Source: Dimorphilus gyrociliatus (taxonomy: Eukaryota > Animalia > Annelida). Taken from it: a stretch of 64,000 bases of DNA. This document shows, in pieces, positions 4,434 through 64,000 of this stretch (positions within the stretch are counted from its first letter, which is position 1; every line of letters starts with the position of its first letter). The translations under genes were made by a program, and so were the position numbers. The stretch spans positions 868,001-932,000 of the forward strand of contig CAJFCJ010000021.1 of NCBI GenBank assembly GCA_904063045.1, given 5' to 3'. Under the pieces are notes generated by a model. That model was not told where the DNA came from. It made no database searches and saw nothing but the letters and a program-made list of their open reading frames with translations.

Positions 4434-4468
<35 letters not shown>

Positions 4469-4746
4469 TAATAATGGCCTAACGTACACAGTTTATAAAA
4501 TGATAATGTAAATTCTTATACTTGTTTAGAAATTTTTTATTTAGTAAATTAAACAAATATTTTAATGTTGTAATAATAGGAAGTCTCTAAAACTAAATGA
4601 ATTATTTATCTTTTTTTATACAATATCACTTACAAACTACCTGTATATACATTATATTTAAGTCATGTGAAAGAAAGGTAAGTAAGTAGTTGTTTTGACT
4701 CTTGTTTAATAACTACTTTATTATTCAAAAGAGGTAGAGAAGCGAT

Positions 4747-4799
<53 letters not shown>

Positions 4800-5268
4800 G
4801 AGACAGAGAGGAGACGCACACACGGACAAACAGAAAAGAAAGATCCAAATAAATAAATAAAAGTCAAAACTTTGGCCTTTCTCCCAATTAGGATTCGTAG
4901 CGCATATTCGCTTAATTTCGCCTTAAATTTGCCCGCTTAAATTTTCCACACGAGTATTGCATATTAAGTTTACTCCAGACTCTTCGCCGTCTCCTTCTCT
5001 TCTTCTTCTTCTTCTCCTCCTCATTCTTTCCCTCTCTTCTCTTTTCCCTTCTATTTTTATACTTTACATTTAAATGATTAAAGTAAGAATAAAACTACTA
5101 TCCATTAAAACTTTTCCTCTATCTTTAATTTATTTAAAATATAAAGAAAAACAGAATTTAGTAGAACAATTTGATTAAATAATGAAATATTTTGTTATTT
5201 TCCCTTTCATTAACAAAGTCTTTTACATATATTAAGTAGTCTTCTCCTTTTTTCTTTCAACTATGAAA

Positions 5269-5784
5269 CTAAGTGGTGCCATCTACTTCAAATTCTTTGT
5301 AAAATTGGATAGCATCTATGTAACGGCCATCGTTCAACTTTACTGCCTTTGGTATACGACCTGCTTGTTGGAAACCAAGATTCTGGGCTATTCTAATCAT
5401 GGCGTTGTTAATCTCAAAGACGAGATTAAAAAAGCTGGCTTTGTAACCAAGATCTGCAGCTATTCTTAAATAGTTTTTTACCATCCATTTCCCTATTCCT
5501 TCGCCTGTTGAAAAATTTATTCTTTATTCTTTTATAAACCAATTATGTAATAATTAGCTAGTTTATCTTGGACTTAATCTAATATAGGAATATTTTTAAT
5601 GGTTGCACAAGGAAGAGAGAGAGAGTATATAGAGTAAAAACAACGTGCTCTTTTTCTTTTCTTTCAAATTACTTTTGAAGAGATAAATATGAAAAGTTAG
5701 AAATGATCTTCCGGGAATCTTATCATTATTACAAAATATATATATACTGTATTATACAGATATTATTTACTATACATCTACTGA

Positions 5785-5819
<35 letters not shown>

Positions 5820-7928
5820 AGGAAGGAGACGAATTTGAATAATTTAACTGTTTAGCTTATTAAGTAATTTAGGGGTTTGTACATTTTCTGTTTGCGTACA
5901 CTTCTAAAAATCTTTTGTCTTCAATTGTTTTTAATATTCAATAATTGAAAAGTTTATTAATAGCCTATTTTCTTGTATATACAATATCATATTTTAAACA
6001 AGAGGTACATTCGTTAAAATATTCATAGATTATTGAAATTCAATGAAATTTTGCCTTAAACCAATGACATTTTATAAACACGATGTTTGAATAAATTGAA
6101 TGTTTTATAGGTAAAAGTTTGATTGATTATTATTCTCCTGAGAGAGAGAGAGAGAGAGAAGAAGAAGAAGACGAACGGCAAAGAGATAATTTAGACTTTA
6201 TTACTTTATTATCAAGTCAATTTGCATGTAGAAAACTGTAAACGAACGACTCTTAACAAAAGAAGGGCAAACGTCTAATGTACAATAAATAATATAAAGA
6301 ATGAACAATTGTGTAAAAAGAAATTAAATACGAAAATAAGTTTGAAAAATAATATCTAAACAAATCGTTCATGTAACGAGCTTACCGTATTTTCGGTATA
6401 TTGTTTAAGCTTTCCGATTGTTTCTATGATATATTATACATATATGTTGTATTAAATGTTTGATAATTATCTATATGTAGGGGTGATAAAACCCTTCGAA
6501 ATGCCAATATAATTCATATTTAATAATGTTTCTTTTGATACGATTTTTCTGTTTGTTTGTGTTTTTATTATTATTTCAATAGAAAACAAAGTTTACCCCT
6601 CTCTCTACACGAAGGAACAGAGAGAAAATGATAGTTTCATAAGTAGTATAGTAACTTTAACGAATAAATAGCATTTACTTGTGCTTTCTTATGCATTCTT
6701 CGTTGAACTAACGCTTCCTGTTGGCCCTCTCGGGATAGCCTTTAAAGTCCTAAGGAACGGACATGACGTTTGGAAAAGAATGTGCTAAAACGTTACGTGA
6801 CTTCGTAATATAAAAAATGTATGATTTTTATATAGTTAAAATAGCTAGTAGCTTCTTCTTTGTATTCTTCTTCTTCTCCTTCTCCTCCTCCCCCTCCCCT
6901 TCCCCCTCCTCCTCCTCCTCTACCATTTACGTCTCTCTTTTCCATTTTGTTCTATATATATAAATCTATAAATCTGTCAAACAGGCCTATAAACACACTA
7001 CACTATACTACATATTGGATGACAATTGTCCAAGTTCAGTGATCTCTTTAATGTCTTTGACAAGATTTAAATACTTGTATAATAATAATAATAACAATAA
7101 TAATATACAATAAAAACAGTAGTTTTCCTATTGCTATAGTAGATTGTGAAATTATACTTAGGCGTTTCGATTCTCTGTAATCTTTTTAATTGCTAATAAT
7201 CATTATAAGGTTTCCTTTTAGGTTCTTCCTCTTTCTCAACGTTTTTACTTAGTAATAGGTGATTGGGAATGTTATTCTCTCCGAAAGTTTCTAAGCAGCT
7301 TTTATATTAGATACATAGGATTTAACGCCAAGAACACGACCCATCGTATAGACTTTCAAGAGGATTGTAAAAGTTAACTCTCTACAATAACCGAAATATT
7401 TTGATACGTTAGGATAATAAATAATCAATTCATTTGTTTAAGATGATCATTATATACTAAATATTTCGCAAATTACTTATCGTATTGAGCAATATTGATA
7501 ACAAGAGTTGTTTTGTCCTAATATGAAATATTGAATAGTATAAACTCGTATATTATATACAAAACTACTATTGTTTCGTTACCTTTACAAATAGCATCAA
7601 CCAGAAAACCGGAATTACATATGTGCGATGAACGACCGGGAAAGTTTGGTTTCACATAGAACGCTCCTAATATATTTCCTTCTTTAGAATCCTTTACAAC
7701 GAATACTTGATGAGTTAGGTAATAACTGCGAAACTCCTCTAACGTAGCTGAATCTTGAGGGTAACTTTCGCCAACATTTACGGTATCTTGGAACAATGCG
7801 TGTAAGGATGGTTCATCCTTTACGTCGTACTCGTCCAAAACAACTTTTCGACCTTTTTTCGTTGTCCAATCTATTGGTAGATAATCTAGTTTTATACCAT
7901 CTTTTTTCTTTGGAAGATTGTAAGCCAT
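5269..7928 (-). CDS. GNAT N-acetyltransferase, Mpr1-like (L-azetidine-2-carboxylate acetyltransferase family); 2 exons, 193 aa
   Basis: Exons 7928-7583 and 5504-5269 join in frame across a 2078-nt GT-AG intron. The motifs GAFYVKPNFPGRSSHICNSGFLV, KGEGIG (acetyl-CoA loop) and LGYKASFFNLVFEIN match the Mpr1 signature as recalled. Confidence 0.88.
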
Positions 7929-8453
7929 TTTGAAATATGTTCTAGTTGTTTATAAGTAGGAGTAGAATAGTATTGTAAATGCTGTTTCATATTTTTCAGA
8001 CATATATATAGTATATGCTGATTCATGCATTGCAACACATTATACTTGAGGCTAAGATTGATAGAGCTGATAAGATTTCAAAGTTATATACATATCTTCT
8101 TCAACTCTGAGAAGAGGTCTAATATACAAATATGTACAAACAATAAGAGAAACCTAGTTTATTCTATATTTTAGTAAAGAATAGCATCTATTTGAACATT
8201 CGATACTGAAATTGAATGGATAAATAGCTATAAAAAGTATATATATATATACTGTATATATAGATAAATAGATAGATTTACAGATAGATGGAAATTTCTA
8301 GAAGTAAAACAATTCGAATAACATAGAATTTTCGAGTAATTAAATAACGTTGGAATGGAGAATGTCGTGCAGTTTATACGATTAGCATTTCGTAAGGAGA
8401 TGTATACATCATACGAATGGTATAAATACATATATATATATACAGTATATATG

Positions 8454-8492
<39 letters not shown>

Positions 8493-10058
8493 CGCGCGAA
8501 AGAAAATGATATATAAATAGAAAAATCATATTTATTTGCATTAATTATTACTAAGAAATTATATTAATTATAATTAGGGTTGGGTTAGAACTTAATTGAT
8601 TCAATTTACTTTATTACTTTTCACACCCAAAACTTCTAAAACAAACAACAAACAAAACAAAAACTATAAGAAACAAGTTTTATAGTAAACTTATAATAAT
8701 CTATTATTATCATCATTATTATCATCATCGTCTTCGTTATCATTGTAAATCTTGTCTATATTTATCTTGAAAAACTGTTTAATTCTACTTTTTATACTTT
8801 ATAACTGGGTGTAATTTAATTAATTAATGTTGCTATTAAAGTTTAATAGGATCCTTTTAGCATTGTAGAAAAGTAAAGTGGATAAATGAATGAAGAGATG
8901 ATAAGGAGGAAATGGAAGAAGCGAAGAGAGGAGGAACGGTATTAGTGTTGGTGTTAGTATGTATGGGCGTCAGGGAGGGAGAGAGAGAGAGAGAGAGAGA
9001 TAGGATATATAAGATAGATAAAGAAATAGTTAATGAAAAGAACAAGTAGAAAACGATAGTAACGTCGAAACGTTGTCATCTCTATTTTCAATCGTAGAAA
9101 ATGACCATCTGAAAAAGAATTATTTGAGAGAATGGAATATATTACAAACACAACAAAATACTGCTAAAGAATGGAATAAATGAAAGATCAAAAAATATAT
9201 ATACACAACCATACTGATATTATAGCTGTATAAATATGAAAAAAATGACTGATTTCTTAAGAAATAGTAAGAAAAGTAGCAGTTAATTTCTCGTTCTGAT
9301 TCTTTCCGCCCACTTTCGTATTTTTCTATGATGATTAGACGAAGCAGAGAATAGACGCCAATTAATCGCCTCAAGAAATGAACACAGACTACCCAATTTT
9401 CATCTACGTACATTTGTTAGAAAGAAACGTCTAGTAGGACGATTAGCCGCACTCGTTCCTCCAATTCCTCGTAGCTCTTAATCGATTCGAACACTCCACC
9501 CTGAGAAATTATAGGCTTACGTCTATCCTTTAATAATCTTACTATTTAGAGAAACTACGGACGAATAGAGCGTTTTTTTCTCACTCCTCTCTTTCACTTT
9601 CTCTCTCTCTCTCTCTTTCAGAAAGTTCTATTATTAACTCTTAATATAAATCGACCACTACGCAAAGAGATCCATTTAGTTTCTTTTATTTACATTTTTA
9701 GAATTTATTATGTGTCTCTTTTGCTTTATCTATTCAGCATCTTTTATCTCTTTTCCTACTATTTCAATTGGTTAAAATCACTAAAATTGATAATAATAAT
9801 AGTAATAATAATAACAATAACAAAACAAATAAAAAATCTTATGACCTTACGGTCATTGACATTGTCTAATTTCTTAAACGCTGTTGACCTCACGACTCGA
9901 TAGCCTATGTCATGTTTATAGCGCCATCTGCATTGCTGAGTATTAACCGTAAGAGATAAGGTTAATTGAGTGAAAAATTCCTTGAAAAATATATTTGTCT
10001 ATATTGTTTTATGTAAATTGAAAAAGAGAAATGTGGTTAGGAGAAGTTTCTCTACCTC

Positions 10059-19315: not shown

Positions 19316-21290
19316 AGATTTATAACGAAAAGTTTAAGCGGATATTAATAAAAATTATTTAAAAAACTTTTTATTTCGTATACGTAAAAGTTGCTGAAAA
19401 AAATCAGTCTGATTAGGTCATTTTTTGCGCTGTAACCCACTGGGCATGATGATAAACTATAAATTATATCGCTTCAAACTTTCCTTGAAGTTTTTTTTAG
19501 TACAATACAGATTTACTACATAAGATGGATCTTAAAATTTTACTTTTCAATAATGATTTTACTTAAACAATTAATTATATTTTTTAAGTAGATGATCTAC
19601 CCGATTCAAATATTAGCAAGGAAACTAGAAGGAAATACTCCATATATATACATACAGTATATCTTTGCAGTTCAAACACTTGAAAGGAGATTCTCCCCCT
19701 AATAAGTCTCTCTATATGGGAATATACAGCAAATACTATCAAGTTGACTAATTCGTAGACTGTTATTCTTCCGATATAAGCTTGTTTTGTTTATTTATAT
19801 TCTTTCAAGAGGCCTATCGTAATTTGAATTATACTTGATGCGCAATTAAAACTAAAGAGTGTATATTGGCTGCATATTCTTTATCGTAGTCTAAAGACTA
19901 ACCTAACCCAACCATGTTAGATAATAAATAATACTAAACGTCTTGGATGCTTCTGTAGACGTTTTCGAAAATTAGCATTCTAAAAGGGAATATAAAGCGT
20001 GTAAAGTTGTATTTATAACTCTGTTCAATATTGAAAGAAGAGAAAAGTAGAAGAATTTAACTTACACAACACAATACAACCATAATACTTTATTTGTTTA
20101 TATTTCAAGTAAATCGTGAAAAGAGAGTCTATCTTCACTATTTATATTTATCGTTCAAAACGATTTTTCCCTTCCCTTTGCTTTAACTTTGTAATATGGA
20201 ATTTATTGTAACCTGAAAGGCTAGCGGTACAGCGACCTGTACCGTTCTAATCTAACTGATTTGTAAAGTGTAATGAAAGCATATTCTACTATCTATATGC
20301 TTTAATTGTCAAGTTTGATAGAATTGTATATCGGTACCTTACCATAATTAGTTAACTAAAGAGAGCGTTTAAAAAACGTCACTTATTTATAGCTAGATCA
20401 TTACTGCGGGAAAAATGTCAATTTGAAAAAAGGCTCCTTTTAGCATTTTCGTTAGTTTCTTACAAGAAAGAAGGTTAACTTAATCATTAACGCTTTTACA
20501 AGCCCGTCTACCCTAGCTCTTTACCTAGCGGAAGTTCAAATTTCAACGGTTTTGACAGAAAATATTTCGGAAAGAGGGCGCAACTGCTAGGGATTGAGAA
20601 ATATTTCCATCTGTGCAGTTTTCTCATACTTCTCTATCAACTACGCCCCCTACAATTTACACTCGTGACCTTAGTATCTGGTAATTGATAAAGGTACATC
20701 TAGATAATAGGTTAAAGTCACTTCCTTTTATTCCGGCCAAGTAGAATACAATACTTGGCTTTCGACTGACACCTTTCCTCTCCGAGACTGATGTCCAAAG
20801 GTGTAATTACTAGTTGGCGAAACGCAATAATTGATAAGTAGGCTTAAACATAGAAGAGAGTAGAGTTCCATTCAATTCGATAGATACGAATGTCCTAGAA
20901 AATGGCAATAATAAGAAGAGTCCTTGTACTTAAAGTTCCTTATAGTTTTCTAATTTTTAACTAATAGTTAGTATACTGTTTAGTTAAAGAATAGGTTAAA
21001 AGGGAGATAAGAGTCTAAGTAATAAGTACAACATAGTCTATTAAATTTAATAAATAGACAAGTATATATTGACTGATGTATATAGATGTGAAATCTAAAT
21101 ATTTAATACTACTTTTCATTCCGACGTCCTTTTTCTGTTGATTGACTGCTTTCTTTTTGCAATTGTTGCTGTTTGTTTGTTGTGGTACAAGTCATCCATC
21201 GTTCCTTCTTAGACTCACTTCTATCCTTGTCTCTTTTGCGGAAACAACAGATAGTTCCAACAAATAGAAATAAACCTGTGAAAAGAGACA

Positions 21291-22696
21291 ATGAATATCG
21301 TCATTAGATTCTTTATTCTTCTATTAAAATTTATTATTGATGCCTTCGGCGATATTCTCGTCAAGTTTGGATTGAGATTAGAACCTTTAACTTTTGAAAC
21401 CGTTTGCAAAGGATTATCTAAACAAGCTAAATCTGATTTGCTACAAACTGAATATGCTAAGAATAACTTTATGGTGCTTATTGAACATATTACCTCATGC
21501 GATGAATTACCACTCACTGGTCATTATTTTACAAGAGTCTGGATGATTAAACTATTAGAGTTAAGAGTCAGAGTTCAAAGATGCTTGAAAGAGGATCCTT
21601 CTATTTATAAGGTTCCTCTAACACGTCCAGTATTTTTTGTTACCCTCATGAGAACTGGTAGTACTTTTCTTCATCATCTTCTATCGCAAGATAAAAATTG
21701 GAGATGCCCCGAACTGTGGGAATTGGAGGATTGCGCACCACCGCCCGGTGGACAGGACGACTCTAGGAGAATTGCAGAGAGTAGATTGAAATGGAGTAAG
21801 TAGAGAAGATTGGGATAGGAAAGCCTAATGTAAAATATAATAACATAAATTTCTATTCCATCAGATATATCGAGTTGTCTAATGGGATGGAAAGACGTAC
21901 AAAAGACGCACACATTCGACCCTCGCAATCCGGAAGATTTGGCTTTTATCGGTTACCTCGACGGTCATTTTGTCGGTTCTTCACTTCTCCATCGCGGAAT
22001 GGAAGGAGAATTTACCGACTACTTTAGAAATCAGTCGGAGAAAATTCAAGATATTTACGAAGAGAATAATCGAGTTCGAATGCAAATGATTTGTAAAAAT
22101 TCAGGTAAATAATATAAAAGACATTTTCCTCTTTTAACTATAAGATCCATAATTCTTTCTTTAAAGATATGACAAAGAGACGATTATTGGCTATGCATCA
22201 TACATCTCCTGTTCATTTAAGAGCTCTTCTAAAAGCCTTTCCCGATGCGCAAATCATCACAATTCACCGAGATTTCGTAGGACAAATGAAATCGTCTTGC
22301 GAATTAATTAGAACAATTTCTAGACCTACTAGAAGACTATTCATAAAAGATAACGAAGGCTACGGTAGAAGAGTTTTGAATTCGGTCTATCACGACGCTG
22401 AAAAGTTGGTTAAATGGAGGAGGGATTGCAACTTTGAAAGTAAAGATTTTCAGAGATTCGTCGACGTTCACTTTAAAGATTTAATAAAGAATCCAATTGA
22501 AACCGTACAACAAATATATAATCAACTGGATCAAGAATTAACAACAGAGGCCAAAGAGAATATGACTAAATTTTTGTCAAATCATAAAAAATCCAATGCC
22601 AAAGCTAAATATAACATTGAAGAGTTTGGATTAACAGAAAATCAGATAAGACAAAAATTCAAGTTCTATACAGACTATTTTAAAGTAAAAACGTGA
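21291..22696 (+). CDS. Sulfotransferase family protein (Sulfotransfer_3 / Stf-like), paralog A; 3 exons, 424 aa
   Basis: Exons 21291-21795, 21865-22104 and 22167-22696. It has the 5'-PSB loop RPVFFVTLMRTGSTFLHHLL, the 3'-PB motif FPDAQIITIHRD...S, DVHFKDLIKNP and a C-terminal KYNIEEFGL. Confidence 0.88.
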
Positions 22697-23600
22697 AGGT
22701 AGAAGAAGATTGAAGATTGAAGATTAAGGATCATTGAAAAGAAAACTATATTAAAGTGATAATTATAATGATTAAACTTTATTTATTTATCTTCTTCCTC
22801 TGTTGAATATATCCCTCTCCCCCTATCATCTGTACTCCTCCCTCCCTCCCTTATTAGTAGATTTCTAGTCTTTTTTACCTGTAAAAAAAGAAACAAATAA
22901 ACGAATTGACAAACATACAAACCTGAATAAACAAAGGAAAGATACAAACTGTACTTTCACTTCTGTATCAATCATATTCTAGATTAAAAAGATCTAGGCA
23001 TAGTGTGTGTGTGTGTGTGTATGTATGTGTGCGCTTGTTTGTGTCCAAGTCTCTTTACGTAAGCATATATATATATATATATATATATATCTATTTTCAT
23101 TATATATGCCACTACAATAATCGTTTATTGGAATGTAGAACAACGCGATAATGCGAATTTGGTTTAAGAGAACACTCCGTCCCCTTTAGAGCACATCAAA
23201 AGAAATAAAAAAAATAGTAATATTACTTTTTCTTGATAAATAACAATTTGTACTAATAAATAACTTATTAGGCTTACTACACTCAATTGACGGACCTTCA
23301 GGCAATTAGTCAAATTTATTTATATATTTAAATTAATATGCATATTTATGCAATAATTAGGATTGTAAAATATGCAAATGTGGTTCCTGGTTTTGGATTT
23401 TGAACACAATATTATACACTGAAAACGGTTCGTTTGTACCGCGCTACGAATACGATAACTTATCAATTTATCTAGGCCGACAATATGGGAATAGATCAAT
23501 ATTTTTTTTATTTACGTTTGATATAAAAACGCGATCTTATTCATTTCATCTTAAAATGTTACCAAGTATTTATTCTCTATAAAAAAAAGATAAAGAAAAG

Positions 23601-25049
23601 ATGCATATAATTCTAAGATTTATTATTCTGACTATTAAATTCATTGTCGATTGGATTGGAGACTTTCTTCTTAACTTTGGTGTTGTTTTATGGCCCCTCT
23701 CCGAAGATTCTTTAACTTCCGTCATATCTAAGGAAGCGAAAATGGAGTATGAAAGCCACAAATATCTTAGAGATTCCTTCCAAATGTTTTCTAATAATCT
23801 ACCACTTAGAACTACTTTTCCCGCTACTGGTAGACTCTTTTCGAGAATATGGATTAAAAGACTTTTAGAATTGAGAGTCAGAATCAATAGAAGCCTAAAA
23901 GAAGATCCCTCAATCTACGACGTTCCACTCCGAAGACCAGTGTTTATAATTACATTAGCTAGAACCGGTAGTACTTTTATGCACTGTCTTATGGCTCAGG
24001 ATCATAGATGGAGATGTCCAGAATTATGGGAATTGGAAGATTGCTCACCGCCACCCGGTGAAAAAGACGATAAGAAGAGAATTTCTGAAAGTAAATTAAA
24101 ATGGGGTAAGGATAATTCAAGTTTTCAAGAAATTCATAATGATAATATCCCTCTCTCTCTCTTTCTTTCTTTCCTTTTCAATAGATCTAACTTCGGTATT
24201 CATGGGTTGGAATGACGTGAAGAATACTCATAATTTCAACGTTCGTACTCCCGAAGATTTACTTTTCCTCTATCATTGCGATTTTCGTTTTGTTCAATCT
24301 GCATTGGTGTTCAGTAGTTTGGAAAAAGACTTTACAAATTATATAAGAAATCCAAAATGGAATGAACAAGTTGAATTTGACGAAAATTTAAGAACTAGAC
24401 TAAAAATGATTTGTAAAAATAGCGGTAAGCTTTACTTTCATTCATTCATTCTTCTTTCCCTCCTTCCTTCCTTTCTCCCTCTTTTCCATTATTAAATTAT
24501 TAATCATTCTATTGTTCAGATATGGAAAATAGAAGGTTATTAACCATGATCCACGCCAGTTCAGTTAACGTTCCATCACTTCTAAAGGCTTTTCCCGATG
24601 CTCAAATTATAACAATACACAGGGATTCTGTTAGTACAATGAAATCGGCTTGCGCCCTAATTCATTGTAATATTAAAGCCTGTCATAGAGTATTCGATTC
24701 GGATAAGATTGGAGTTGGTAGACGCTTGCTTAATTACATGAAATTAGATACGCAAAAGCTAATTAGTATGAGAAAAGATGATAATTTAAAAGCAGAAGGA
24801 TTTCAACGCTTCATCGATGTTCATTTTAAAGATTTGGTTAAAGAACCAATAAAAACAATGGAGAGCGTCTATAAGCAGTTGGATATAAAATTTGACGAAG
24901 ATGTTAAAAGGACCATGTCGGCTTATTTGGCGAGACATAGGAATTCAACAGCAAAAGCAAAGTATACATTGGAAGAATACGGCCTCAGTGACAATGTTGT
25001 AAAGAATGCATTTAATGACTATAATAATTTCTTCAGTGTAAAAGCATAA
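23601..25049 (+). CDS. Sulfotransferase family protein (Sulfotransfer_3 / Stf-like), paralog B; 3 exons, 424 aa
   Basis: Exons 23601-24105, 24185-24424 and 24520-25049 have the same lengths (505/240/530 nt) as paralog A. Motifs RPVFIITLARTGSTFMH, FPDAQIITIHRDS and KYTLEEYGL. Confidence 0.88.
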
Positions 25050-26339
25050 AATGACATTTAAAGTATGATAATTTACGAATGATTTAATAATTGTTATATT
25101 TAAAATATGAGAAAAACAACTTTCTGCATTCTAAAAGCGAATTCAAGATTCAAGATTATTGAACATCATTTTTTTTCCTCATCCACTTCTCATGTCCCTC
25201 ATTCCCTTTTCGTGTATATTTATGTGTTTGTCATCTTAATCATTGATTAAATGAATGAATAAACTCACAAACAAGTGAATAGTCAGTTAAAAACAAACGC
25301 TTTGTTTTTATTTTCACTCAAATAGAATGTAACTAGCACAAATATCTTTACAGGTGTTTTACGTTCGTAGAAAGAGACTTACTGACGATTGAAATAATGT
25401 TGAGAATAGTGTTGAAAAAGCAAATAGAAACAATTTACTAATTAATGACATTCTCATTAAAATTAACTAAACATGATTGAATTTAATGTAACATTGCAAG
25501 TCATCATGGCGAAATATGCACATGTTATATATATATACTGTAATTATATATAGAAAGTATACTAAATATAGAAAACACGCCACTCTCGGGCAATACACCT
25601 TTGATCGTGGTGAATTTTTCGAATTCACTTTTCTTCAATTTGAATTTATTCATAAAGTATTTAAATTATACTTGATTGTAATATTCATTGCGAACAAATT
25701 GTATCTTATGTTATATAACAGTAAAGCTTATAGTATAAATTTTAATATAATTAATTATTATTTTGAATATTTTAATTGGTTAATTATCACTCTGCTGATA
25801 GTTTACTTGTTACCTCTTAAAAGTCTTAGAAGGACTATCTATTCTCATACTCTGTACCTTATCTCGACCTATATCAACAAAACAAAAGGCCTGTCTGGGA
25901 CATTTAGGCTTAAACGGCATACTTTAACTTTTTTTTTCTCTCTAATTTTAGTGAAAAATTTCAATGTTTTCACGATTGTTAAGTAATTAAACGGATTAAA
26001 CTATTTTTGAATAACCTTCATTTACCCTTCAGTATCTTATTACAACTTGTATATCTTTACTTTCACTTGGAAAGACGTTTAAACTGGAAAATGATCTTTT
26101 TCAAATCCGCTTATTTCCCCCAAACTAGTCTGCTGTTGGATTTAATCAAAAAAATGAATAAAAATTGAATGCAGACTATAGGCCCAATTGCCCCTGTTCA
26201 AACGGTAAAGGTTAATGGGAAAAGGTTTTTGGTAAGAAATAGCTGAGCCTTTTAGCACAGATTTTTCACTCAATACATTCTTCTGCCTTTGAATTTTTGC
26301 AGTTAAAGAAGCAAATAAGAAACGACAAAATAAATTGAA

Positions 26340-38558: not shown

Positions 38559-40310
38559 CTATTCTAAGGCGAAAATTGACAGTTCAGAAGGAGCGTGAAC
38601 CCATGTACCACATCGATTTTCTACAAATTTATCGTAGAGAAATTTTTTAGCTAAAGAATAAGAGAGGCAATTGTCCTTTGTATCTTTATAAGTTTCACCC
38701 AACACCTTTTGCCTATTCGAATCTTCGCAAACTTGACTAAAACGCTTAAATATTTGGCATTTAGATAACCTTGAAGATTGTTTATCAACTGCTAGACCAC
38801 TTTGACTGTCTATTATTTCAATACAATCAGATGTTTTATACCAGTTTACTGATATATGCGTTAAACGAGAATAATAAAATGGTACTTGTATATCCGTATG
38901 ATGAATTCTAATAGAATTGGAATTTGTAAAGTTACGACCATTTAAAGCTCTATTTAAATGTTCCGGATAGTATTTTTCGCCAACGATAATCGACTCCAAG
39001 TAAACTGGTCGAAGAAAATGAGACAACAATGAGCCTTGTAAGCCAATATTAAGCCATCTACATATTTTATCTGAACAACTCATAATTCTTAGACGTTTTC
39101 CCAATTTTAAAGACAATAGCGATTGTTGATAATTTTCTTCTATTAAAACGGCGCCTTCTCCTGCTTCAATTTTTGTTCTTAGCAGTCCGTGAACCTGTAA
39201 AGCGATCATTCAACGACGGTTAGCTATCTATGTAGAACAAACTAATACTAATAATGCCAATGCTACTTACCTTAGGATCATAACTACAACCATTCGGAAA
39301 TATTGCCGAATCGCCGCAAGGCGCGCACGAAATGTAAAGGTGAATTGAATAATTATTGTTCATCTTTAGATTTGCGCCTTCTTCAACGAAAATCGACGGT
39401 TTATTCTTGTAAAAATTATCAATTTCTTCCATGAAATATCTATTTGTACGGGAGCGTTTTTATTGCGTTTGCATTGTAATTGGTCTGCTTTATCTCTTAG
39501 GTCTACTTTACCTTTTTAATCCTCTTCTGGCTATTATTTCGGCGTGTGTATCCAATAGACACTCACCTTTTAATGTAAGATATTGCGACGAAATGCATTT
39601 ATTACCCGTACCAATACTTATGACTGATCCTTCGCTATTCTTTCCCTTTAGATAGAAGCCGGCAACGACCTTTTTACCAAAGCTTATATTCGGATTTACA
39701 ATGCACATTTCCAAGAATTTCTTATGAATTTCGCACACAATTGCTTCTTCAAAGTTGCATTCTCTCTTCCTATCTTCTATCTGGCGTTGAAATGGATTTA
39801 CGCTATTCATTTGCAATTGATTGTAAAAACCAAAAGTCTTACCTCATCCATTAGATCTCGAATAATTCTTTTCCAAGCTAACAACGCTGCACCTTGTTTA
39901 GCGTCTTTTTTTGTTGACGCTTTAACTTTTCGATAGAATCTAGACTCTATTTTAACGCAGTAAATATAGCTATATGGAGAGGAGGAAGAGAGCGAAAGAG
40001 CGGGAGCGAGAGAGAGAGAGCAAGGAGGAAAAAATGAAATTATTTATTTTGCTATAAAAAGTTTCTACTTTAAAATATAATTAAAGAATTATTGTAAATC
40101 TAACCATGTTGATGAAAAGCTGTCCATTTCGATGTAATCAACAGGTTTATTCGTACATTGAGAATATTCCGTTAGGATGGATATTGGACTTTTATATATA
40201 GATATTTCCTTTATTTCTTCTTCTAACGTATTAAAATCGCTTAAATCTTCGCCCATAAATGATAATCCGGCTAATAGGAGATTTTGATTTCTCAAACAAT
40301 TCGATGACAT
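38559..40310 (-). CDS. dsRNA adenosine deaminase (ADAR family) with one dsRBD; 5 exons, 468 aa
   Basis: Exons 40310-40105, 39969-39843, 39780-39512, 39439-39271 and 39194-38559 join in frame. The dsRBD reads [12 protein letters not shown]...[15 protein letters not shown]. The deaminase has [37 protein letters not shown] and GLQGSLLS. Confidence 0.92.
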
Positions 40311-40698: not shown

Positions 40699-41674
40699 TC
40701 ATGTTATAGTTGTTATTGTATTATTACGCTGTTCGGAATCCTCGTAGGAAGGAGGAGCATCGGTTGGCTGGTTAATATTATTATTATTATTGTTGTTATT
40801 AATACTATTAGAATTATTGTATAGTTCGTCGTAAGCCGGTGGAGCTATTGGAAGAACGTTAGTAACATGATCTGGGCCATTGCGTACTATTGGTCTATCG
40901 GATATAGGCATAACTTGTTGACGATTGCTACTAACAGTGCTACAGCAACCAAATATACAGCTGAATATTATAACGCATATAATGATCATTACGATGCCAA
41001 TTACGGAGCAAATAATTGCTAAAACTATAATAACAGCCGTCGTTAAGCCACCGTCATCCTGTCCCGATGACGATAATGCCACATACTCAATTTTAAAACC
41101 TTTCCTCGTGACACCATTTTCATCGGATATGAATCCAATTAAAGCAGAGTTGGAGCTAGTTTTCAATTCGAACTTTTCGTCAGACCCACACCATTTTGCT
41201 AATAATTTTGAACTGGTGGTGAAACCGTCGTAAACGACTCCAAAATCGTTCATACACTTGCTATCGTACTCTATAGAACTCTCTATAATCCGGAGAGAAA
41301 TGATATGATTAATAGACGCCGAGATTTTCCAGCAGACGAGAATATTATTTGGATAGTTTCCACTCTCAAAGAAAGGAGTTGTAAAAGTTTTTATGTTTGA
41401 TGTAGCCTTTAGAATACTCGGAACGCAAGTTGTCTGACAGTCTAAGCACACGAATATTGCTGTAGAATAATAATAATAATAATAATAATAAGAGCATTTT
41501 AGAAATATTGCATTACTGATAGTCATGTATCGTAAATCATTATCAAGTGTTTTTATCGATTAGCGTAATTAGCTTGAATAATTCACTAATTATTTAACTT
41601 TACCTTGTTAATTATAATAAATTCTTTATTAGATACTTACAATTTATACAAAAGAACCAAAAAAGTATCAACAT
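40699..41674 (-). CDS. Single-CUB type I membrane protein with PPxY tail; 264 aa
   Basis: Signal exon 41674-41641, phase-1 intron, then exon 41459-40699. CUB reads YPNNILVCWKI...CMNDFGVVYDG...KWCG...GFKIEY. A TM with juxtamembrane Cys is followed by PPAY and PPSY. Confidence 0.88.
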
Positions 41675-42941
41675 AACAATATATCTATGTAAATATACTT
41701 TCTTCCATAAGAATACTTAAACACATAGAGCGTCGGTGTACTGTACTATATATGTACTAATCTCAACCTCTCTCTCTCTCTCGCTCTCTCTCCGTATAGA
41801 TAGGTGTATAATAAGATTTTCAATATACAAGTAAATTAGGCAATGACAAAAAAATTAGGGGGGAGAGAGGGAAGAAGAGAGAGAGAAATGAAGGAGAAAA
41901 CTTATATTTTAGAGGAAGTAGAGAGAAAAAGAGATTAGGCGAGAGAACGAGAGAGAATATTTCAACAAAAACATAACTACTGTTGTCATAATAGAGTTCA
42001 TGGACTGGGGCAGCTAGCTATTGAAAAAGGATCAATATTTACAAGATATGTGCTAATAACTTATAGACTATATATATATTCATTTATATTATTATATATA
42101 TATATATTAATAAAGAAAAAGGAGAAAAGGGATTATCTTATATACAGAAAATTAAAAAACGCTTTATTAATAAAAGAAATCTCTAAGTTCAATCAAATTT
42201 CTCATTCTTTTCTTTTCTTATCTTTCTCTCTCAACGCAATCAATCTGCTAATTGTTTCATCAATATTGATTAATAAATTATATATATATAATACAAGCAA
42301 AACAAACAAACAAACAAGCAAACAAACCAATTCAGTTAACATTTAAAATATCTCACCCAACCCAATCTTTTTTGGCTTATATTGAAAATGACGGAAAAAC
42401 AAATTCAATAAAACAGTTTTATCGATAAGAATAAAAGAAAAAAGAACCAAAAGCTCAATAGAATTAAATTCTTTACACTTTGTTTTGTTTGACTTTGCAT
42501 TTTCTAAAAGTTATAAATGACTTTTAGGAAACATTTATTGCCTTTGTTACTTTAACAAAACTGTTATAGGTCAACGACTCTGTTTTCTTTAGCTTTCCAT
42601 CTTCTGCCAATTATATTCACCATCTTTTTTTCACTTTTATATCATTTCCCAAAAACCGCTCGTTTTTTAAAAGAGAAAGCTTTCGTGTTAAAATTGTTGC
42701 TTATTAACTTAAATGAATATTCAAATGAAAAACGTAATAGCAACCATCACAACATCACTGAACTTAGAAACGAAAATAGGAAATTTTCCTTTCCCGAATC
42801 GATGCTATGTTCAAAAAAGTACTGCATTTTCATTATCCCACTTTCTTTCTTCCGTGAAAGTTTCTTGGAGAAAGATTTCCTTCGGTTTTAGAAAGAATCT
42901 TTTATAAAAGTATACTAAAAGTCAGCAAAGGAAAGAAAAGA

Positions 42942-43639
42942 ATGGAAAAGCATCTTTCTGAGCGTAAGATAAGCTTTATTGAAATAACAAACAACTTTGA
43001 CTTTTATAATTTTCTTCATTATTTAGTTGTTGTTGCTGTTGTTCTTGTTCTTCTATCAATTTCATCTCTTACAACCTACGGACAATTAATTTGCAAAAAG
43101 CATAATTGACGAAAATTTTTAGCTCGATTTCACTTAAAACCGAAGGTTACGATAGAGGCTTTTATCTACGATCAACCAAAGCTTGTTGGCAGATAACCGT
43201 TCCCGATGGAGATGTAATAGAAGTGAAAGTATTGGATAGTAGACTGCAAGGAGATTCTAATTGCGAAACTGATTATGGTAGTATACACGACGGCCTAACG
43301 TCGTCTTCTACTGAATTGAAGAAATGGTGTGGTACGGAGGAGAATTTTGTCGTTAAAACATCGGGTCGTTTCGCTGTTATCTTTTTCACTTCGAATTTTG
43401 ATTTCTTGGTCTACAGAGGTTTTCACTTCGAGTGTAATATCGTAACACAGTCAAAGTCAGCATCATCAGATTCTACAATCAGTACGCGTCTTCTTGTTAT
43501 AATTGGAATTGGAGTTGTAGCAGGTTTAATATTTCTCTTAGTATGTTGGTATTGCTGCTGTAGAGCAAAGCCAGTGCAACCAATACAAGTAGTTGCCCAA
43601 CCACCTCCACAAAACCGTGTAGTGAATATAGTTAATTAA
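42942..43639 (+). pseudogene. Single-CUB type I membrane protein with a 1-nt frameshift near 43106 (pseudogene or assembly error)
   Basis: Signal exon 42942-42963 spliced to 43027 gives MEKHLSELVVAVVLVLLSISSLTTYGQLICKKHN and then TGA at 43107. The CUB-TM frame (ACWQI...CETDYGSIHDG...KWCG...GFHFEC; TM; WYCCCR) resumes one base out. Adding one T in cataattgac restores the ORF. Confidence 0.7.
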
Positions 43640-55171: not shown

Positions 55172-56141
55172 GGTTTTCTTTCTTTCCTTTTCTGTCTTGT
55201 CTTCAGTGAAGATTTAAGCGAATGATGATCTACAGACAGTCTTCAGCACTTTATATACCCTCTTCTCTTACCGCCAACATCTGCTGAATGTTGCTATTTA
55301 AATAGTGAAATATTTAATTTAGTCATTTTTTTTTATATAAAATATAAAGAAACGTTTTCTTACAAATAGAATTCTTTTACTTTTTCATCATAAAAGATTC
55401 TTTATTCGGAATAAATAAAGAAAAAATTTCTAGACTATTCTCTTTACATTTTTTTTATATATAGAAATATATGACGCAAAACGTTGAAGTGCAACAAAAT
55501 AGAAACGCAACGATGCTTAATGTAAAAATCTTTTGAGGAGATACTTTGAACAAGCCACGGCTATCAAACCATCATTTGTGTCATAAAAGCGAGTGGGAGC
55601 TAGCAATGAAAGTGCTATAAACGTCTATATCTACTGTATAAATTTATACAGTATATGTATAGTATATAGAGGTTAATTTCTTTTCACTTTAAACTACTAC
55701 TACAACATCATCAACAACAACTACTACTACTGCTTCTACTATCGGTAAACCCTATTTACAGAAGAACCCTTATCAACACGTTTCTTTCAATCTCTCTTAA
55801 TCAACGTTTAATTCATTAAAAGTTACCGACAACAAAAGAAGTCTTCAAATGGTTGATTTGAACAAGAATAACTAGTGCCCTCCTTTAACAGCCGTCTTTT
55901 TTCTATCCTATAAACTCTTGTAAAATAGGATACTTAATAGAGGAATAATATTTAATATTTAACTCTAATGAAATTATTTAGTGTCACGTAAGTAATTTAT
56001 TTGTTCAGCTTATCAATAAAACAAAATTGCATACAGCCTATCATCAAACAAATTATATACATCATTCAATGAAAAATGTAGCATATATAATTTATTAAAA
56101 GTTATAAGACGTCTTTTTTTACAACAATCGCAAGATTTTCA

Positions 56142-59100
56142 TCAAGTAAATACAGCTGTTTCCAAAGTTCTCTTAACAAAATATCCATACGCCTCAATGT
56201 CCGTAGTCGTATTTTCACCATTCAATATTCCATATTCAGCCGGAATTATAAAAAATGAACAAACGCTTTTCTTGCGCTAAAATAGAAATCAAAACGGTTG
56301 TATTGGCAATATATAATTGTGGTTGTAGTTATTGTCCTAAATTTTACGTGAATAAAGAGATAAAACCTCAAAATATATCATCGATTCGTTAATATTTCCA
56401 CTTAGTGTAAATCCATAAGAATGACAATGCTTTAATGCTACTATGCAATCTTTTAAGCAACCAACAAACGACTTTATCTCGAATTTCATCATCTCACCAC
56501 CTAAACTATGAAGAAACTTCTCTGCATGCCCAGTTGCCAAATGATTATCATAAAAGCTATTTATAAATTCTAAATCTATTTAACAAAATAAAAAGCAACC
56601 CTTGACACAAGCAATTGTTAAATCTACAGAATAAAGATGAAAAGAGGGGAAACAATTGTTTTACATACTTTCCTTTTCAACTCTGGCTATTAAATTTTCC
56701 TTTCCTTCATTTCTATATCAAAAAAAAGTCTTTGAATTAATTAATATCTCATTAGCCGATTACCGACTAATTGCTAACAAACAACATATACGGTCTCTAC
56801 TTACTCTCTAACAATCTCTTCTAAACGTTTCTTCCGTTTCAGTTTTAACATTTCACCAAAGTAGTAAAAATATGGGTTAATAATTGAATTAATCGGAGCA
56901 AACACAATCACAATCCAAGTATAGGCTTCGTTACTAAAATATAATTCAACGAATAAAGATGTTATACCTAAAATTGAAAACAATTAACAACAACCCAAAT
57001 TCAAAAAACTAACAATAAACTACAATAATTTACCCATCAGAGATATCGGAAGCCAACATAATACATTTGATAATGTTATCCAATAAATAGATTGCGAAAT
57101 AAATACTTTTTCTTTATTTATACTAATAAAACTCCTATTTCGCTGATTAATTAATTTTATGACGCAAATGTACACTATTGAGTTAATTATTGCTATCAAA
57201 AACATTAGTATTCCATAAATGGCGAATGAATACAACGTATCCTCATCTTTATTGCTCCGGACTTGAAGTTTAAAACATATTGGCGAATTGTTTAAAAAGT
57301 TCTGAAAAGTTGGTAAAACAAACACCAATCCATTGTTATAGAAAACATCTTTATCGTTAACAATTAAACAGTTGACGTTACCTCGTAGAACAAGATAGGA
57401 AAAATAGCCAGCGCTAAACTCACACACAGTAAGCTAATGGTACTTGCGCTCACAACTTTAATACCTAAACGAGGATTCAAAGGAAATTTGATGGCGTAGA
57501 ATCTTTCGAAACTTATACACAGAAGATTCAACGACGAGTATAATACAGAAAAGTTCATCATTGAACCCAAAAATTTACAAAACAATCCCGAAGTCCACGC
57601 TTGTTCGTACTCGAAAAATTTCCCTCTGAAATAGACGTCCGCCGAACCAACAATCATTAAGTACAAACAAGTAATTAGGTCGGCAAAAGACATTGAAATG
57701 TAAAAGAAATGCGTAGGTCTCCTGAAATGGAATATCCTGAACAAAAGCGATAAAGAATTACCCACAATTCCACAAATTGCGTAAAGCCATAGAATCACTT
57801 TCAGAGCATTGGACGCCAAAAGATCGGAACAAGTGTTGAATAGAGAAGTGGAAGGAAAACACGATTCGATAGATTTCAAATACTTCCACGCAAAGCAACA
57901 CAAAATGAAATATTCGCTTTTCACTATCTTTACACTTTTCAAATTTGAAATGAGAGTTTTCACGTTTTCCATTGGAAATTTCGTTTCCGACAAATCCAAC
58001 TTATGGAGGCGATTCTCCCTCAGAAACCAATTGTCCATCTGCTTTATTGCGCAACCTCTAAGCAAAAGTACAACCAACTTAGCCAAATTGGCGAATGCGT
58101 CTATCGACAGAGAATTTATCTTGGTAAAAGATAAATCAAAGTATCTGACATTCGAGAAATATTTCCCGCTCAACAATTCAGTTAGAGGATTAAACGACAA
58201 ATCCAAATGTTGCAAAAGAACATTCGGAATTTTCATAACGTTTTTCATAGATTCAAGTTTGTTTCGTTTCAAATTCAACAAAACCAAATTTGGCGCGTCA
58301 AAGTGAGCGATGAAATCTCGTATATTGCAATTTTGTATTTGAATACTCGCCAGACTGTTCGATTGGAAATTGCCGTTCAATTGTCTGTAATTTTCAATCA
58401 ATAGTTGTTTAGTTCCTCTCAGATGATTAACGAGAGATAAATGAAGAGTTTGATATTGATTGGAGGATGTGCAAGAGAGATTATAGGCGGGTGACAATGA
58501 ACAATGGGGCGGATAATCGTTAGTGCGATTAGGACAGAAGACTTCGTCATTAGCATATTTGCAATTGATAATACCGTCACACACTTTTGTCATCTTTAAA
58601 TATAACAATTGATTTTTACATTTGAAAAATCCGCTTGGTCGAAAATCATCTTTATTCGAAGAAAGAATGCAAATGAATACAACTTGGCCAATGTGTTGCC
58701 GACTACAGATTATTACCGCAATGTAGCTCGTCTTCATTATACCAACAATGATTGATACCGTCGCAAACCTGTTCGATTGAAATACAGTATTTCGCAGTTT
58801 GGCATAGAAATTCGCCTTTATCGCATGATTGTTTTTCACAGTTTGCCAAATCTGAAAGTGGATAAAGTTTTGCGTTGGAATTTCCATTGGAATTATATTT
58901 CAAATTGCATGTTTTTTGATATTTTGAACTATGATAAAAGGAATTGAAATTTTAATAACTCGGTAATGATTAAATTATTACCGTAATTGATAAGTTTGTT
59001 TCAAGATACCGTAACAACTGTCCCAGTCCTCATCTTCGAAATCAAGACAGTTGTAGACCATATTACACTTGTACGATAAATTTATACAGGTTTTGTCGCA

Positions 59101-62100
59101 ATAAAACTGATGCTGAGGATTACATTCTAACGGAACGGACGACTGTTATCTATAAATTATCGTCTAAATATGTTCACCTTCGTACTGCTTTGAATATTTG
59201 AGCCGTTTCTACGTATTTGAAAGTTAATGCATTTCTCATCGGTGAGATCGAAACAATTTCTTTCGTCGTTGCAGACATCTTTCAACTTTAGACATTGTCC
59301 ATTTGCGCAGGAACTGTTGATCGTGTTAGGTTTATTGGCCGAATAATCTTTCTACTACGAAGTTGGTTACCTTTCTGCTTGGCTACACCTTAATTTTTCT
59401 TTTTAAAGATATTTGAAATAAGGAATTTGTGAATAGATTCGAATGATAAAGATAAGATGTTTATATTACTGCAAAAACGCTCGTCTGATTTATCGGCACA
59501 GTCATGTTGAAAGTCGCAAAAGAATTGTATCGGTATTCTTTGATTAGAGGAGGGACAATGAAAGTGTTGATTAGGAGGACAATTAATTTCATCTTCTCCC
59601 GAGAAGCAATCATTTTCACCGTCGCAAACGTTAATGTAGCTTATGCATATTTCATCTCTGATGCAATGGAAACTAGATTGCGGACATTGAACCGATATAT
59701 GTGTATAAATATTCCAATTGTGGAGGGAACTCTTCGAAGAGGCTGTTGTAACGTTAAAGTGAATTTCATTAATAATCAAACCAAATTGAACAATCGCCGA
59801 CAAACCGAAAGATTTTTGACAAAGGAACGGAGCGTCACTTTTTGCAAAGCAAGAAGTGGATACTTTTTTAAAAGTTATCGAGATTATTCTTGCATCGAAA
59901 AATCTTCTCCTTACGTAAAGGCATTTACTCGTTTTATCGATAGTTATCGGTGCTCTATATAAGAAAAGTGAAAACATCCTAGATCTTATAGTCTCTTCAC
60001 TTTTGTCTTTCGTAATATTTATCTTCTGCAAAGTGAATTAATGGATTAATTACACTTATTATTGACTGTGTTTGAATAAATGCAACAAGTTTTCCATTAC
60101 AATATAGTCGATATACGACGATAACAGCTCCAATGGTTTATTTGTCTGAGTTGTTAGAACCTTCTTCCCTTCGGAGTTGGACACTTCCTTCAAAACTGAA
60201 ATTGCGAATGAACTAATACTTTTGACTCGTTAATTGTGTTTGTTGTTTACTAGCAGGATGACTTAGCAGCAGTGTCTCGCCGCCTAGAATAGTAAAATAG
60301 TTAACCACCAATTTAGAGTTTGTATTTGACGGATTGCCGTATGGCAAAGAGAACTCTAAAAAGAATAAATAACTATAAACATGGACTGGAAAATTTAACG
60401 GTTCGTCTAAAAGAGTAAGATTCTTTTCTCTGCAGAATCTATCCATATCCAGTATGGTCATCTTGTCTTTCGGTTTGATTAAGTAATAGCATGTATCTAA
60501 TATTTTGTGACTATATTCGTATTTACAATCTGCGACAGTTACTTCAAAATTTTACAGTATTCGTTAGTATGTAAGGCCCCTTACCCATCGTCTTACGCCT
60601 AACGCATCTGATTAGGAATGTATTAGTTATTCTTACTAATTCACTTTGAATATTAAAACAATGAAATGTTATGAGAGTATCTTTTCTATTAGAGATTATC
60701 TTTCTACTTACTTGTCGTAGGCACTGAAACCAGGAAATTCTCTTCTTGTTTGTTTACAATTTTCCAGTAAGGTATCATTTCTTTCGCAGTTTAACTCGAA
60801 CAATTTATAAAACGCGCCGTAATTGTCGAATGCAGCATCGAAAGGTACTAGTGTACCCGATAGAAATCCGAAATGTTGACATATTAGATCCACCTCAAAA
60901 TCTTGCATTGAATTTACAGAAAATCCAATCCAATGCTTTGAACTATAAGACTGAAGAGAGCCCTGATATTCTTTTACATGTTTATCAACTCTTTCGTACA
61001 GGTGATACTTTTGTTTATTGTATAATCTAAACTTTTTATCTAGAAAGAGAAAGTAAAAGAGACGATGAAAGAAAATTATTCTATCGGCTCAACGGCAAAA
61101 TGATAAAAAGAATACAATCGACTTTTTATAGATTCATCATCTTTCAAGCAAGGAATGTTGAAGAAGTAGGTATCGTAAGAAGGATTTTGTATTGAACAAG
61201 AAATGAAATCTTCGCCATCCTTAATACAATTTGTAAACGTCAAATTATTCGTCATATTTCTCTGTCACATACAGTATTACAGCAATTATAGTATAAACTA
61301 AACTTCATAAAAAAATGGACGCAGTAAATTTTGATAGGCCAACTTTTAATTAACAGTTAAAATTGTTTTTTCGCTGTAAATTATTGTTTTTGGTCTAAAT
61401 TTCTATAAAAAAAGGGTTATACTTACGTCATTTTCATCAATTTTTTATTTATTTGGCCGCACTTCATAATTATTGGAACGGTCACTTGACATCTGATTTG
61501 GCATTCAAATAGATGTTGCAAAAAACATTTTTTTCAACATCTTTGATTTTCTAAGTTATCTTTATCAATTAATTGTTAATTTCATTTATATTACTTTATT
61601 TTTATTGTACTTTTTTAAATATGACGTGGAGTAAAGACATTAGGGAGCTTGTATTCAAGAAATACAATGAATTACAAAAACTACAAGCCACTGCATGAGC
61701 TTTAGGAATGGCACCCTCTTCTGTTAGCAATGTTTTAAGGTATCAAACACCAGAAGAGGAGAATAGAGGTTGTCCAAAGAAACTTATGGAGAGAGATATA
61801 GGCAGGATGAAGAGGGCTATACAGCAAATGAAAATAAATAAGGAGAGGGTGACAGCAAGAAAAATTTTGAAAGAGTTAGATGTAGATGTTAGCCTATTAA
61901 CCATTCAAAGGGAGCTGAAAAAACAAAAATTTAGGTATAAGTGAGTTAGCCAAACAACAAATCTTACAAAAAATAATTGCAAGAGGAGAAAAAGTTTCTG
62001 TCTTCAGATGATCAGTGATAATCTAGACTGGTCTAAAGTAATTTTCACCAATGAGGCTAGATTCTCACTGAGTGGGCCAGATGATTTTTGTACATGGACC

Positions 62101-64000
62101 AAAGATGGTGAAAAAGATTTCAGAGTGACGAAAAATATGGGCAGAGGTGGAGTAATGGTCTGGGGACTGATAATATTTGATGGAATATTCGAGATTTGGT
62201 GGAAAAGGAAAAGGCTTAATGGTGAAAATTACAGCTGTTTTATTGTGGAAGATGTCCTTCCTGTTATCAAAGAGATTGAGGCAAAAATGGGGAGGAAATA
62301 CATCTTCCAGCAAGATAATGCTGGGTGCCACACAGCGAGGATGACTAAAGAGCCTTTCAAATGAATGATATCCATCCTCTTGATTGGCCAGCAAAGAGCC
62401 CCAACCTCAGCATAATTCAAATCCGAGGATGAATTGTGGAAAAAAATTGAAAAATGCTCGTATGAGCTTATAAAAGAGCAGCCAGGGTTGTTACCATGTC
62501 CAAATGATGGAATGGGGCATAGAATCAGGCGATGTATCGAAAAAGAGGGTAGTCATATTCAAAAATGAGAATAATAGGAACATTTTTGTTGGTTTTCCAA
62601 TTATTATGAAGTGCGGCCAAATAAGAAAAAAGAAATCAATAAAACAGTACATAATATAAACAAAAAAAAAATGATGTAAAATCTTACCTAAATCGTATTT
62701 GAAAGAAAATTAATATATAAATTTAAGCTTCATCTAACATTTTATGAAGAAAAAAATTAAAAAAAAATCTTTTTTCTTTGTGAAAAACATTTTTAATATG
62801 TTGGCCTATTCAAAATTCGACATGTTCCAATTTTTATGAAGTTTACTTTATACAGTATATATACTTGTAATCGTAGTTTTATTTCGGTTACTTTTGAACC
62901 GCAAAATCCGTATTCCTATTAATTGATGGGTATTTGATATAAGAGGATAATTATAGGCTTCGTAAAACTATACTACAACCTCATTTTCCCTGCTATTTGT
63001 TAAATTAGCAATACTCCCGTCAAGTTTCATTGATAATTTCCTACAAATCTTGTCACCAATTTTTAATTTTGACTCTTCAACATCGTCGTTCGAAAGGTTT
63101 ATTGATAAAGAATTAAATGAATTCCTATAGATAAACTGTTCGGTTGATACGATTAAAAAATTAACAAATCTCTCTTCAAAAGAAATATGAATATATAGGT
63201 AGATAATATAGGTGAAAATTAGGTCACTACTCGTTTGAACTAACCCTTAACCTCTCCTCCTGGGAAACATTCTGCAAAGTTCTCTTTATTTGTTGTCTTA
63301 TTTAATTGTTGAAAGAGAGGAATTTGAGTGAAAAATCCACCGATATGTTTAACTTCGTGAGAGATTGTTTGGCTCTGTAAACTGGTAAACAGAGCTTTAC
63401 TACATATCTCTTCATTTCTTTGCAATTGATAGGAAATACGATAATTTATCTCATTCCACCTTACCAGTGCAAGAAATTGATTTGAACGTTTGTTTTCTTG
63501 TATATAAACATCTGCATGTTTTTATATGAGAATTTCTATTATCGTTATCTTCGTTAAAAATAGCCAAAGCTTACTTACAAGGAGAATTCGCAATTGCGCA
63601 TTTTATACAAACAGATGCATATTTCGTACCTTCATCGTTTTCCACATAATTACTGAATGACAGAAATGTAAAAGGGAACATTCAATCAATCGATCAATCA
63701 ACCTCTTTTGGATTTGTAGAGGACAATACAACTTACAACTCGCAGCAACTTTTCATGTTGTACGACTTGAGAAGAAAGTAGTTGTTATCTTCCGGATCTT
63801 TGACTAACCATAAATGAGATAAACATGAATAAAATGGACACAAGTTGTCGCAAAATGTTTGCCCACTTACGTTTTGAAGAGGGACAAAGAAAAACTTGAT
63901 GATAGAGACTATCATATCCAAATTGAGAGCAAAATTTTCCGTAAAAGTGACGTCTACATTTCTCGTATTTCAGTGGATATTTCAAATTAAATTGCCCTAA
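56142..64000 (-). CDS. GRL101-like LDLa/LRR-containing GPCR (type C LGR) with SRCR-like and C-type-lectin-like N-terminal modules and a kinase-like tail; 5' end at or beyond the window edge
   Basis: Multi-exon. SRCR-like (HWIG...DLICQHFGF, 60710-61040), CTLD-like (DTCYYL...FCREKN...PFLCQK), at least six LDLa repeats (e.g. VCDGENDCFSGEDEINC), LRRs, hinge CCF...CSDLL, and 7TM with GN, ADL, WTSGLFC, ERF, CWLP and NSIINPYFY. Terminal exons are 56712-56669, 56575-56367 and 56276-56142. Exons above 63240 are tentative. Confidence 0.85.
61289..62855 (+). mobile_element. Tc1/mariner DNA transposon, IR/DR type, non-autonomous (1567 bp)
   Basis: TA flanks at 61287-61288 and 62856-62857. Imperfect terminal IRs (TAGTATAAACTAAACTTCATAA vs CTGTATAAAGTAAACTTCATAA) and inner inverted copies at 61449-61479 and 62595-62624. 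Contains a transposase remnant. Confidence 0.9.
61621..62568 (+). pseudogene. Tc1-family transposase pseudogene
   Basis: HTH and RGCPKKL, WSKVIFTNEARF (first catalytic D>N), GGVMVWG, FQQDNAGCH and DWPAKSP. In-frame TGA stops at 61696, 61942 and 62362, and a deletion across the catalytic E region. Confidence 0.9.

Follow-up and report, generated by a model that had tools for sequence, protein, structure and literature searches.

A GRL101-like receptor gene of Dimorphilus gyrociliatus with a likely minimal kinase C-lobe in its cytoplasmic tail

The closest described relatives of the receptor considered here are the type C2 LGRs, which are defined by multiple LDLa domains (PMC4079206) and are regarded as orphan receptors (PMC11863921). 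The accessible text of both papers makes no mention of a kinase-derived module behind TM7 in connection with type C2 LGRs. For the GRL101-type family, the binding of IGF-like peptides (10.1101/2021.04.15.440029) and a role in chemosensing (PMC6573481) have been proposed.

Fusions between 7TM receptors and kinases are known from other organisms. According to the accessible part of a 2025 survey (PMC12716839), such fusions are found in oomycetes, amoebozoans, choanoflagellates and sponges, none of them has been functionally characterised, and GPCR-TKs occur in no metazoan other than sponges. Neither Veenstra's GRL101 paper (10.1101/2021.04.15.440029) nor the apple-snail paper (PMC6573481) nor the Dimorphilus genome paper contains, in its accessible portion, a tail such as the one described below, and the module is undescribed in the literature searched (main texts without supplements, subscription journals being mostly outside the coverage). 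It is apparently unpublished.

The receptor part of the gene

A compact multi-exon gene occupies the minus strand from ~61,300 to 56,142 of the window, that is, of the whole 64,000-nucleotide stretch of DNA that was analysed (Table 1). By its sequence, the product is a GRL101-like receptor composed of LDLa repeats, LRRs and a 7TM domain, and the features of a type C2 LGR (multiple LDLa repeats and LRRs placed before a rhodopsin-type 7TM) are present. The Pfam family Ldl_recept_a was matched by all four ORFs tested, one of them with two repeats, and two of the four matches pass the curated cut-off, while the large exon matches both LRR_8 (E=7e-8) and 7tm_1 (E=2e-11) and the 7TM has intact class A motifs (ERF, CWLP and NPYFY). 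Among named proteins, the large exon matches a GRL101-like receptor of Biomphalaria best (E=5e-25). In a HMMER search, the best named match among those looked up is a Dimorphilus gyrociliatus protein with 30% identity; the closest database relatives (P0025-P0037) are single-exon fragments, and no entry for the full protein of this gene was found in the protein database. The 7TM is very divergent, its best identity being 29%. In a quick 7TM tree made without RXFP, LGR3 and LGR4, the receptor falls inside a 56-row GRL101-like group (SH-aLRT 99), where its branch is long and its exact placement unsure.

Transcript evidence was taken from the contigs of one public run of one study (X1; the kind of run is not on record), and these contigs skip GT-AG introns along the whole gene, as RNA would. 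Towards the 5′ end, no single intron opens the reading frame between 60101 and 60643 (minus strand); 108 two-intron solutions do, for instance one with two 55-nt introns. A cysteine-containing ORF in the same interval looks C-type-lectin-like by eye, with no such match in Pfam.

Several other features were noted around the receptor. Just upstream of it, at 61699-62361 (plus strand), lies a transposase-like remnant (Tc1/mariner by eye, with no Pfam match) to which many divergent copies from run X1 align. Directly downstream, at 55000-55186 (minus strand), there is a small spliced transcript whose product begins like a signal peptide and whose contig depth is very high (~4,000-10,000); its first exon has no Pfam match. 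Farther away, a long single ORF at 51976-53160 (plus strand) encodes a RING-finger protein whose C-terminal part is coiled-coil-like. By eye, about five small genes of the CUB-like plus transmembrane type are clustered at 40700-47400, an adenosine-deaminase gene (ADAR/ADAT-like) lies at 38560-39850 (minus strand), and two tandem sulfotransferase-like genes occupy 21280-25050 (plus strand).

Table 1. Features of the receptor gene, in the order of transcription (positions within the window; joints are those in X1 contigs)
Feature	Position	Strand	Evidence
SRCR-like extracellular domain exon (weak)	60712..61039	-	Pfam SRCR E=0.0025, below curated cut-off; flanking joints in contigs
LDLa-repeat ectodomain exons, two inner introns inferred	58717..60025	-	Pfam Ldl_recept_a; joints 60101>60025, 58982>58928, 58717>58649
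Large exon: last LDLa-like repeat, LRRs, hinge, TM1-TM4 with ERF	57382..58649	-	Pfam LRR_8, 7tm_1; one contig
TM5-TM6 exon, CWLP	57034..57301	-	7tm_1 E=0.008; joints; motif
TM7 exon (NPYFY) with helix-8 region; donor before in-frame TAA 56803-56801	56805..56967	-	contigs, motif
44-nt tail linker exon	56669..56712	-	shares contig with TM6 and TM7 exons
93-nt intron, spliced and retained forms	56576..56668	-	contig depths 8 vs 5.8; translation
Tail exon, predicted from the family profile to hold hinge/helix D, a helix E whose conserved His is codon 56423-56421, a degenerate catalytic loop and strand 7	56367..56575	-	profile
Last exon, likewise predicted to hold strand 8, a short linker replacing the activation segment and a helix F whose conserved Asp is codon 56201-56199; stop codon	56142..56276	-	profile; contig to 56192

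Splicing of the cytoplasmic tail

A preliminary description of this DNA, made from the sequence alone, had proposed that three small exons are spliced in frame after TM7 and add a degenerate kinase-like module to the receptor. The exons lie where that description had placed them on the minus strand, with GT-AG sites and introns of 92, 93 and 90 nt; the TM7 exon and the three tail exons read in frame to a TGA at 56144-56142, and both peptides that had been quoted are present. Joined in this way, the tail extends 148 aa past NPxxY, or ~128 aa past the donor of the TM7 exon.

The X1 contigs bear out this splice model, as they contain the joints 56805 to 56712, 56669 to 56575 (the short side of this middle joint having 30 letters, one under the bridging threshold) and 56367 to 56276. 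A single contig of 251 nt runs from the TM6 exon through the TM7 exon into the 44-nt exon. The TAA that follows the TM7 donor is therefore skipped in the transcript, and termination at that codon, the outcome that would have spoken against a spliced tail, is not borne out. In the last exon, the final 50 nt before the stop are without contig cover, which counts neither for nor against the model.

A second contig retains the middle intron (56668-56576), and its translation would stop 36 aa past NPxxY, before the kinase-like module. This retention may represent an isoform or unspliced pre-mRNA.

The tail module and its likeness to the kinase C-lobe

Searched directly, the 69-aa middle tail exon has no match in the protein database or in metagenome contigs, and against PDB sequences it gives only three unrelated matches (E 0.8-1.1). 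Both tail exons lack a match to any Pfam family, and hence to any kinase family. A structural model of the 69-aa exon alone, which does not include helix F, reached a pLDDT of 66.8 and matched no kinase (best VIA Z 4.0). When the ESM Atlas features of this exon were compared, 22 of 30 matches fell in Pkinase-rich clusters (0.92-0.93, with low shared-feature counts), a result that we treat as a lead only.

The tails of homologous receptors are more informative. The relatives considered were the best 150 matches to the large exon, of which 48 have a full 7TM; eight of these 48 carry a module of ~110 aa behind TM7. The eight module tails were picked by eye and are therefore in the profile by construction: the relatives so chosen come from Patella, Haliotis, Mercenaria, Mytilus, Mactra and Acanthaster, while a Dermacentor tick protein was found independently, with 29 bits. 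The resulting profile, A1, is made of eight tails of mollusc, tick and starfish GRL101-like receptors and excludes the window tail. P0082, which belonged to the first set selected by eye, was left out of A1 and obtains 0.1 bits on a later profile; P0115, left out as well, scores 47.5. Three database proteins (P0079, P0056 and P0130) have two 7TM blocks per chain and are probably fused gene models of tandem GRL101 genes. A database search with A1 returned 12 matches, nine of them new and including Rhipicephalus and Ixodes proteins, and all 12 are 7TM receptors (11 carry PF00001 and the twelfth is named a GPCR).

Against the spliced window tail, A1 scores 13.1 bits, a value that none of 5000 shuffles reached (maximum 9.7), the reversed tail scoring 1.0. 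Similarly, the true join ranks first among 254 same-sized two-exon GT-AG joins in the window, with 13.8 bits versus 7.8 for the next. Each of the two tail exons weakly matches consecutive parts of A1, in the right order (hhalign E 0.0036 and 0.00063, with probabilities of 9% and 28%). The unspliced tail ORFs are not significant against A1 in a six-frame scan, where two unrelated ORFs outrank the last exon, which takes third place among 1433. The best-kept residues of A1 are a His in helix E (8/8) and an Asp in helix F (7/8), both of which are present in the window copy; in kinases, they form a structural, non-catalytic pair that holds the C-lobe together. From the shuffles and the ranking of the joins, both significant, the window tail is probably homologous to the module family.

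Receptors of three other phyla (molluscs, ticks and a starfish) thus have the same module after TM7. The preliminary description had presented an LGR with a kinase-like tail as a departure from the textbook LGR architecture, and the module is indeed present, but it is not peculiar to this gene. No Pfam kinase family is detected in any of the eight homologue tails or in any of nine whole proteins, which may be the reason why the module lacks annotation.

The family can be related to kinases through both sequence and structure. When A1 was compared with PDB sequences, the best 60 of 352 matches (E<=10) were all protein kinases, with B-Raf at the top (E=1.3e-4). The alignment consists of two pieces, from helix D to strand 7 and then helix F, and leaves out the ~25 residues in which DFG and the activation loop lie. 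One match listing was topped by TAL-effector rows, which were discarded as an artefact of the summing of repeats, since none of their stretches passes on its own; below them, the listing continues with kinases and pseudokinases. An AlphaFold model of the family, built on A1 with the tick sequence (pLDDT 86.5, pTM 0.80), has three helices and short strands, ends at helix F and matches C-lobe ranges only. By VIA-align, all 50 listed entries are kinases or pseudokinases by title, the best being Rad53 (Z 10.7, rmsd 2.8, 100 aligned), a score to be read knowing that a Z under ~13 can be generic for helical proteins. By Foldseek, all 45 listed rows have the kinase fold; the best E is 2.5e-3, and none is at E<=0.001. 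The two lines of evidence on the family agree independently, and the order of helix E, catalytic-loop region, strands 7/8 and helix F appears in both the profile and the tick model, in keeping with the mapping to helix E, catalytic loop and helix F first suggested for this tail.

The features of an active kinase (glycine loop, VAIK lysine, HRD and DFG) are missing. No HRD, DFG or GxGxxG is found in the 7TM-plus-tail region and the profile maps only to the stretch from helix D to strand 7 and to helix F, both parts of the C-lobe; the absence of HRD, DFG and the N-lobe that had been read from the sequence is therefore upheld. As the activation segment is absent too, the module cannot be a stand-alone enzyme. 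Nor does it have the make-up of a bilobal pseudokinase, the whole tail being 148 aa long and the family model matching the C-lobe only. It is likely that the module is a minimal kinase C-lobe that has neither an N-lobe nor HRD, DFG or an activation segment. That the window copy is itself kinase-derived has good, though indirect, support: its proposed likeness to kinases holds through the family profile, but not by its own sequence or by the model of the exon alone. A tail with no structural or profile similarity to the kinase-like fold, the second outcome named as speaking against the proposal, is likewise not borne out.

Possible roles and comparison with known systems

With somewhat better than even confidence, we favour a spliced GRL101-like receptor whose tail module of ~100 residues, a C-lobe stripped of its catalytic motifs, would act as a folded docking site. 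That four phyla have retained a small folded domain at one and the same position is best explained by a docking or regulatory surface; the preliminary description had suggested a possible signalling scaffold. Judging from the motifs, a ligand would bind the LDLa/LRR ectodomain and G proteins would be activated in the ordinary way, as in other type C LGRs, and the module may recruit or screen a cytoplasmic partner. The predicted family fold comprises kinase helices D, E and F together with strands 6-8, helix F following strand 8 almost directly because ~25 residues of the activation segment are gone. Since the needed lobe and residues are missing, the module would be unable to bind ATP normally or to transfer phosphate. 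Retention of the middle intron would produce a form of the receptor without the module.

The module might instead be vestigial, that is, the decaying remnant of an ancestral receptor-pseudokinase fusion that stays folded and does no harm but has no partner of its own. Such decay would fit the absence of the module from 40 of the 48 full-length relatives, the low identity of its members to the first row of A1 (15-28%), the at least 4-5 gains or losses that its presence needs on the quick tree and the intron-retained form, which would drop it. However, molluscs, ticks, a starfish and this gene have all retained the same truncated ends and the His/Asp pair, the module is kept as open, spliced exons and the family model is compact and confident; we regard a mere remnant as rather unlikely. 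It is very unlikely, in our opinion, that the window tail is not homologous to the family at all and that an ordinary long GPCR tail resembles its helix-strand-helix arrangement by chance. Although the absolute score is low (13 bits), the tail has no direct kinase match and the receptor does not group with the module-bearing receptors in the quick tree, where it stands apart on its long, unsure branch, the score was reached by no shuffle and by none of the 253 other joins, and the exon pair follows the order of adjoining A1 segments, in a receptor of the same class and at an equivalent position after TM7.

Active kinases are subject to allosteric control by kinase C-lobes and by pseudokinases, JAK JH2 and HER3 among them. 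This precedent, together with the retained C-lobe core, is consistent with a split or allosteric kinase system in which the module would make up one half, pair with a real kinase (or with an N-lobe provided in trans) and switch it on once the receptor is occupied. Nevertheless, a domain complemented in this way would still lack the catalytic Asp, DFG and the activation segment and so could not catalyse, and the model stops at helix F, so that helices G-I, which are common kinase docking surfaces, are absent; a system of this type seems highly improbable. A wider proposal would see here an unrecognised, bilaterian-wide class of rhodopsin-type receptors with a "half-kinase", the smallest kinase-derived fold. 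Through recruitment or allosteric switching of a real kinase, this domain would provide an orphan hormone receptor with an output independent of G proteins, and alternative splicing would turn that output on or off. We consider it unlikely.

If GRL101-like receptors of molluscs, ticks, a starfish and this animal do carry a kinase-derived module, 7TM-kinase fusions would extend to bilaterian rhodopsin-class receptors, in a form missed by Pfam, and a minimal kinase C-lobe would be defined as an independent domain. It would also provide a handle on an orphan receptor family, through the module as a pull-down bait and through natural isoforms with and without it.

Several known systems resemble the one proposed here. 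Pseudokinases such as Tribbles, VRK3, RNase L, PAN3, PEAK3 and JAK JH2, which are among the sequence or structure matches, are alike in having a kinase fold without catalysis, but they retain both lobes, whereas the module lacks the N-lobe, the activation segment and anything past helix F. The GPCR-TKL/K and GPCR-TK fusions, as described in the accessible part of the survey cited above, also combine a 7TM and a C-terminal kinase-fold domain in one chain. In them, however, kinases detectable with Pfam/InterPro are placed on other 7TM types, while here a bilaterian rhodopsin-class LGR would carry a dead C-lobe core, with no Pfam-detectable kinase in the tail exons, the homologue tails or the whole proteins. 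Finally, the type C2 LGRs (Lymnaea GRL101, arthropod LGR5) share with this gene the multiple LDLa repeats, the LRRs and the rhodopsin-type 7TM, to which it adds an SRCR-like N-terminal domain, a very divergent 7TM and, behind TM7, a probably kinase-derived module.
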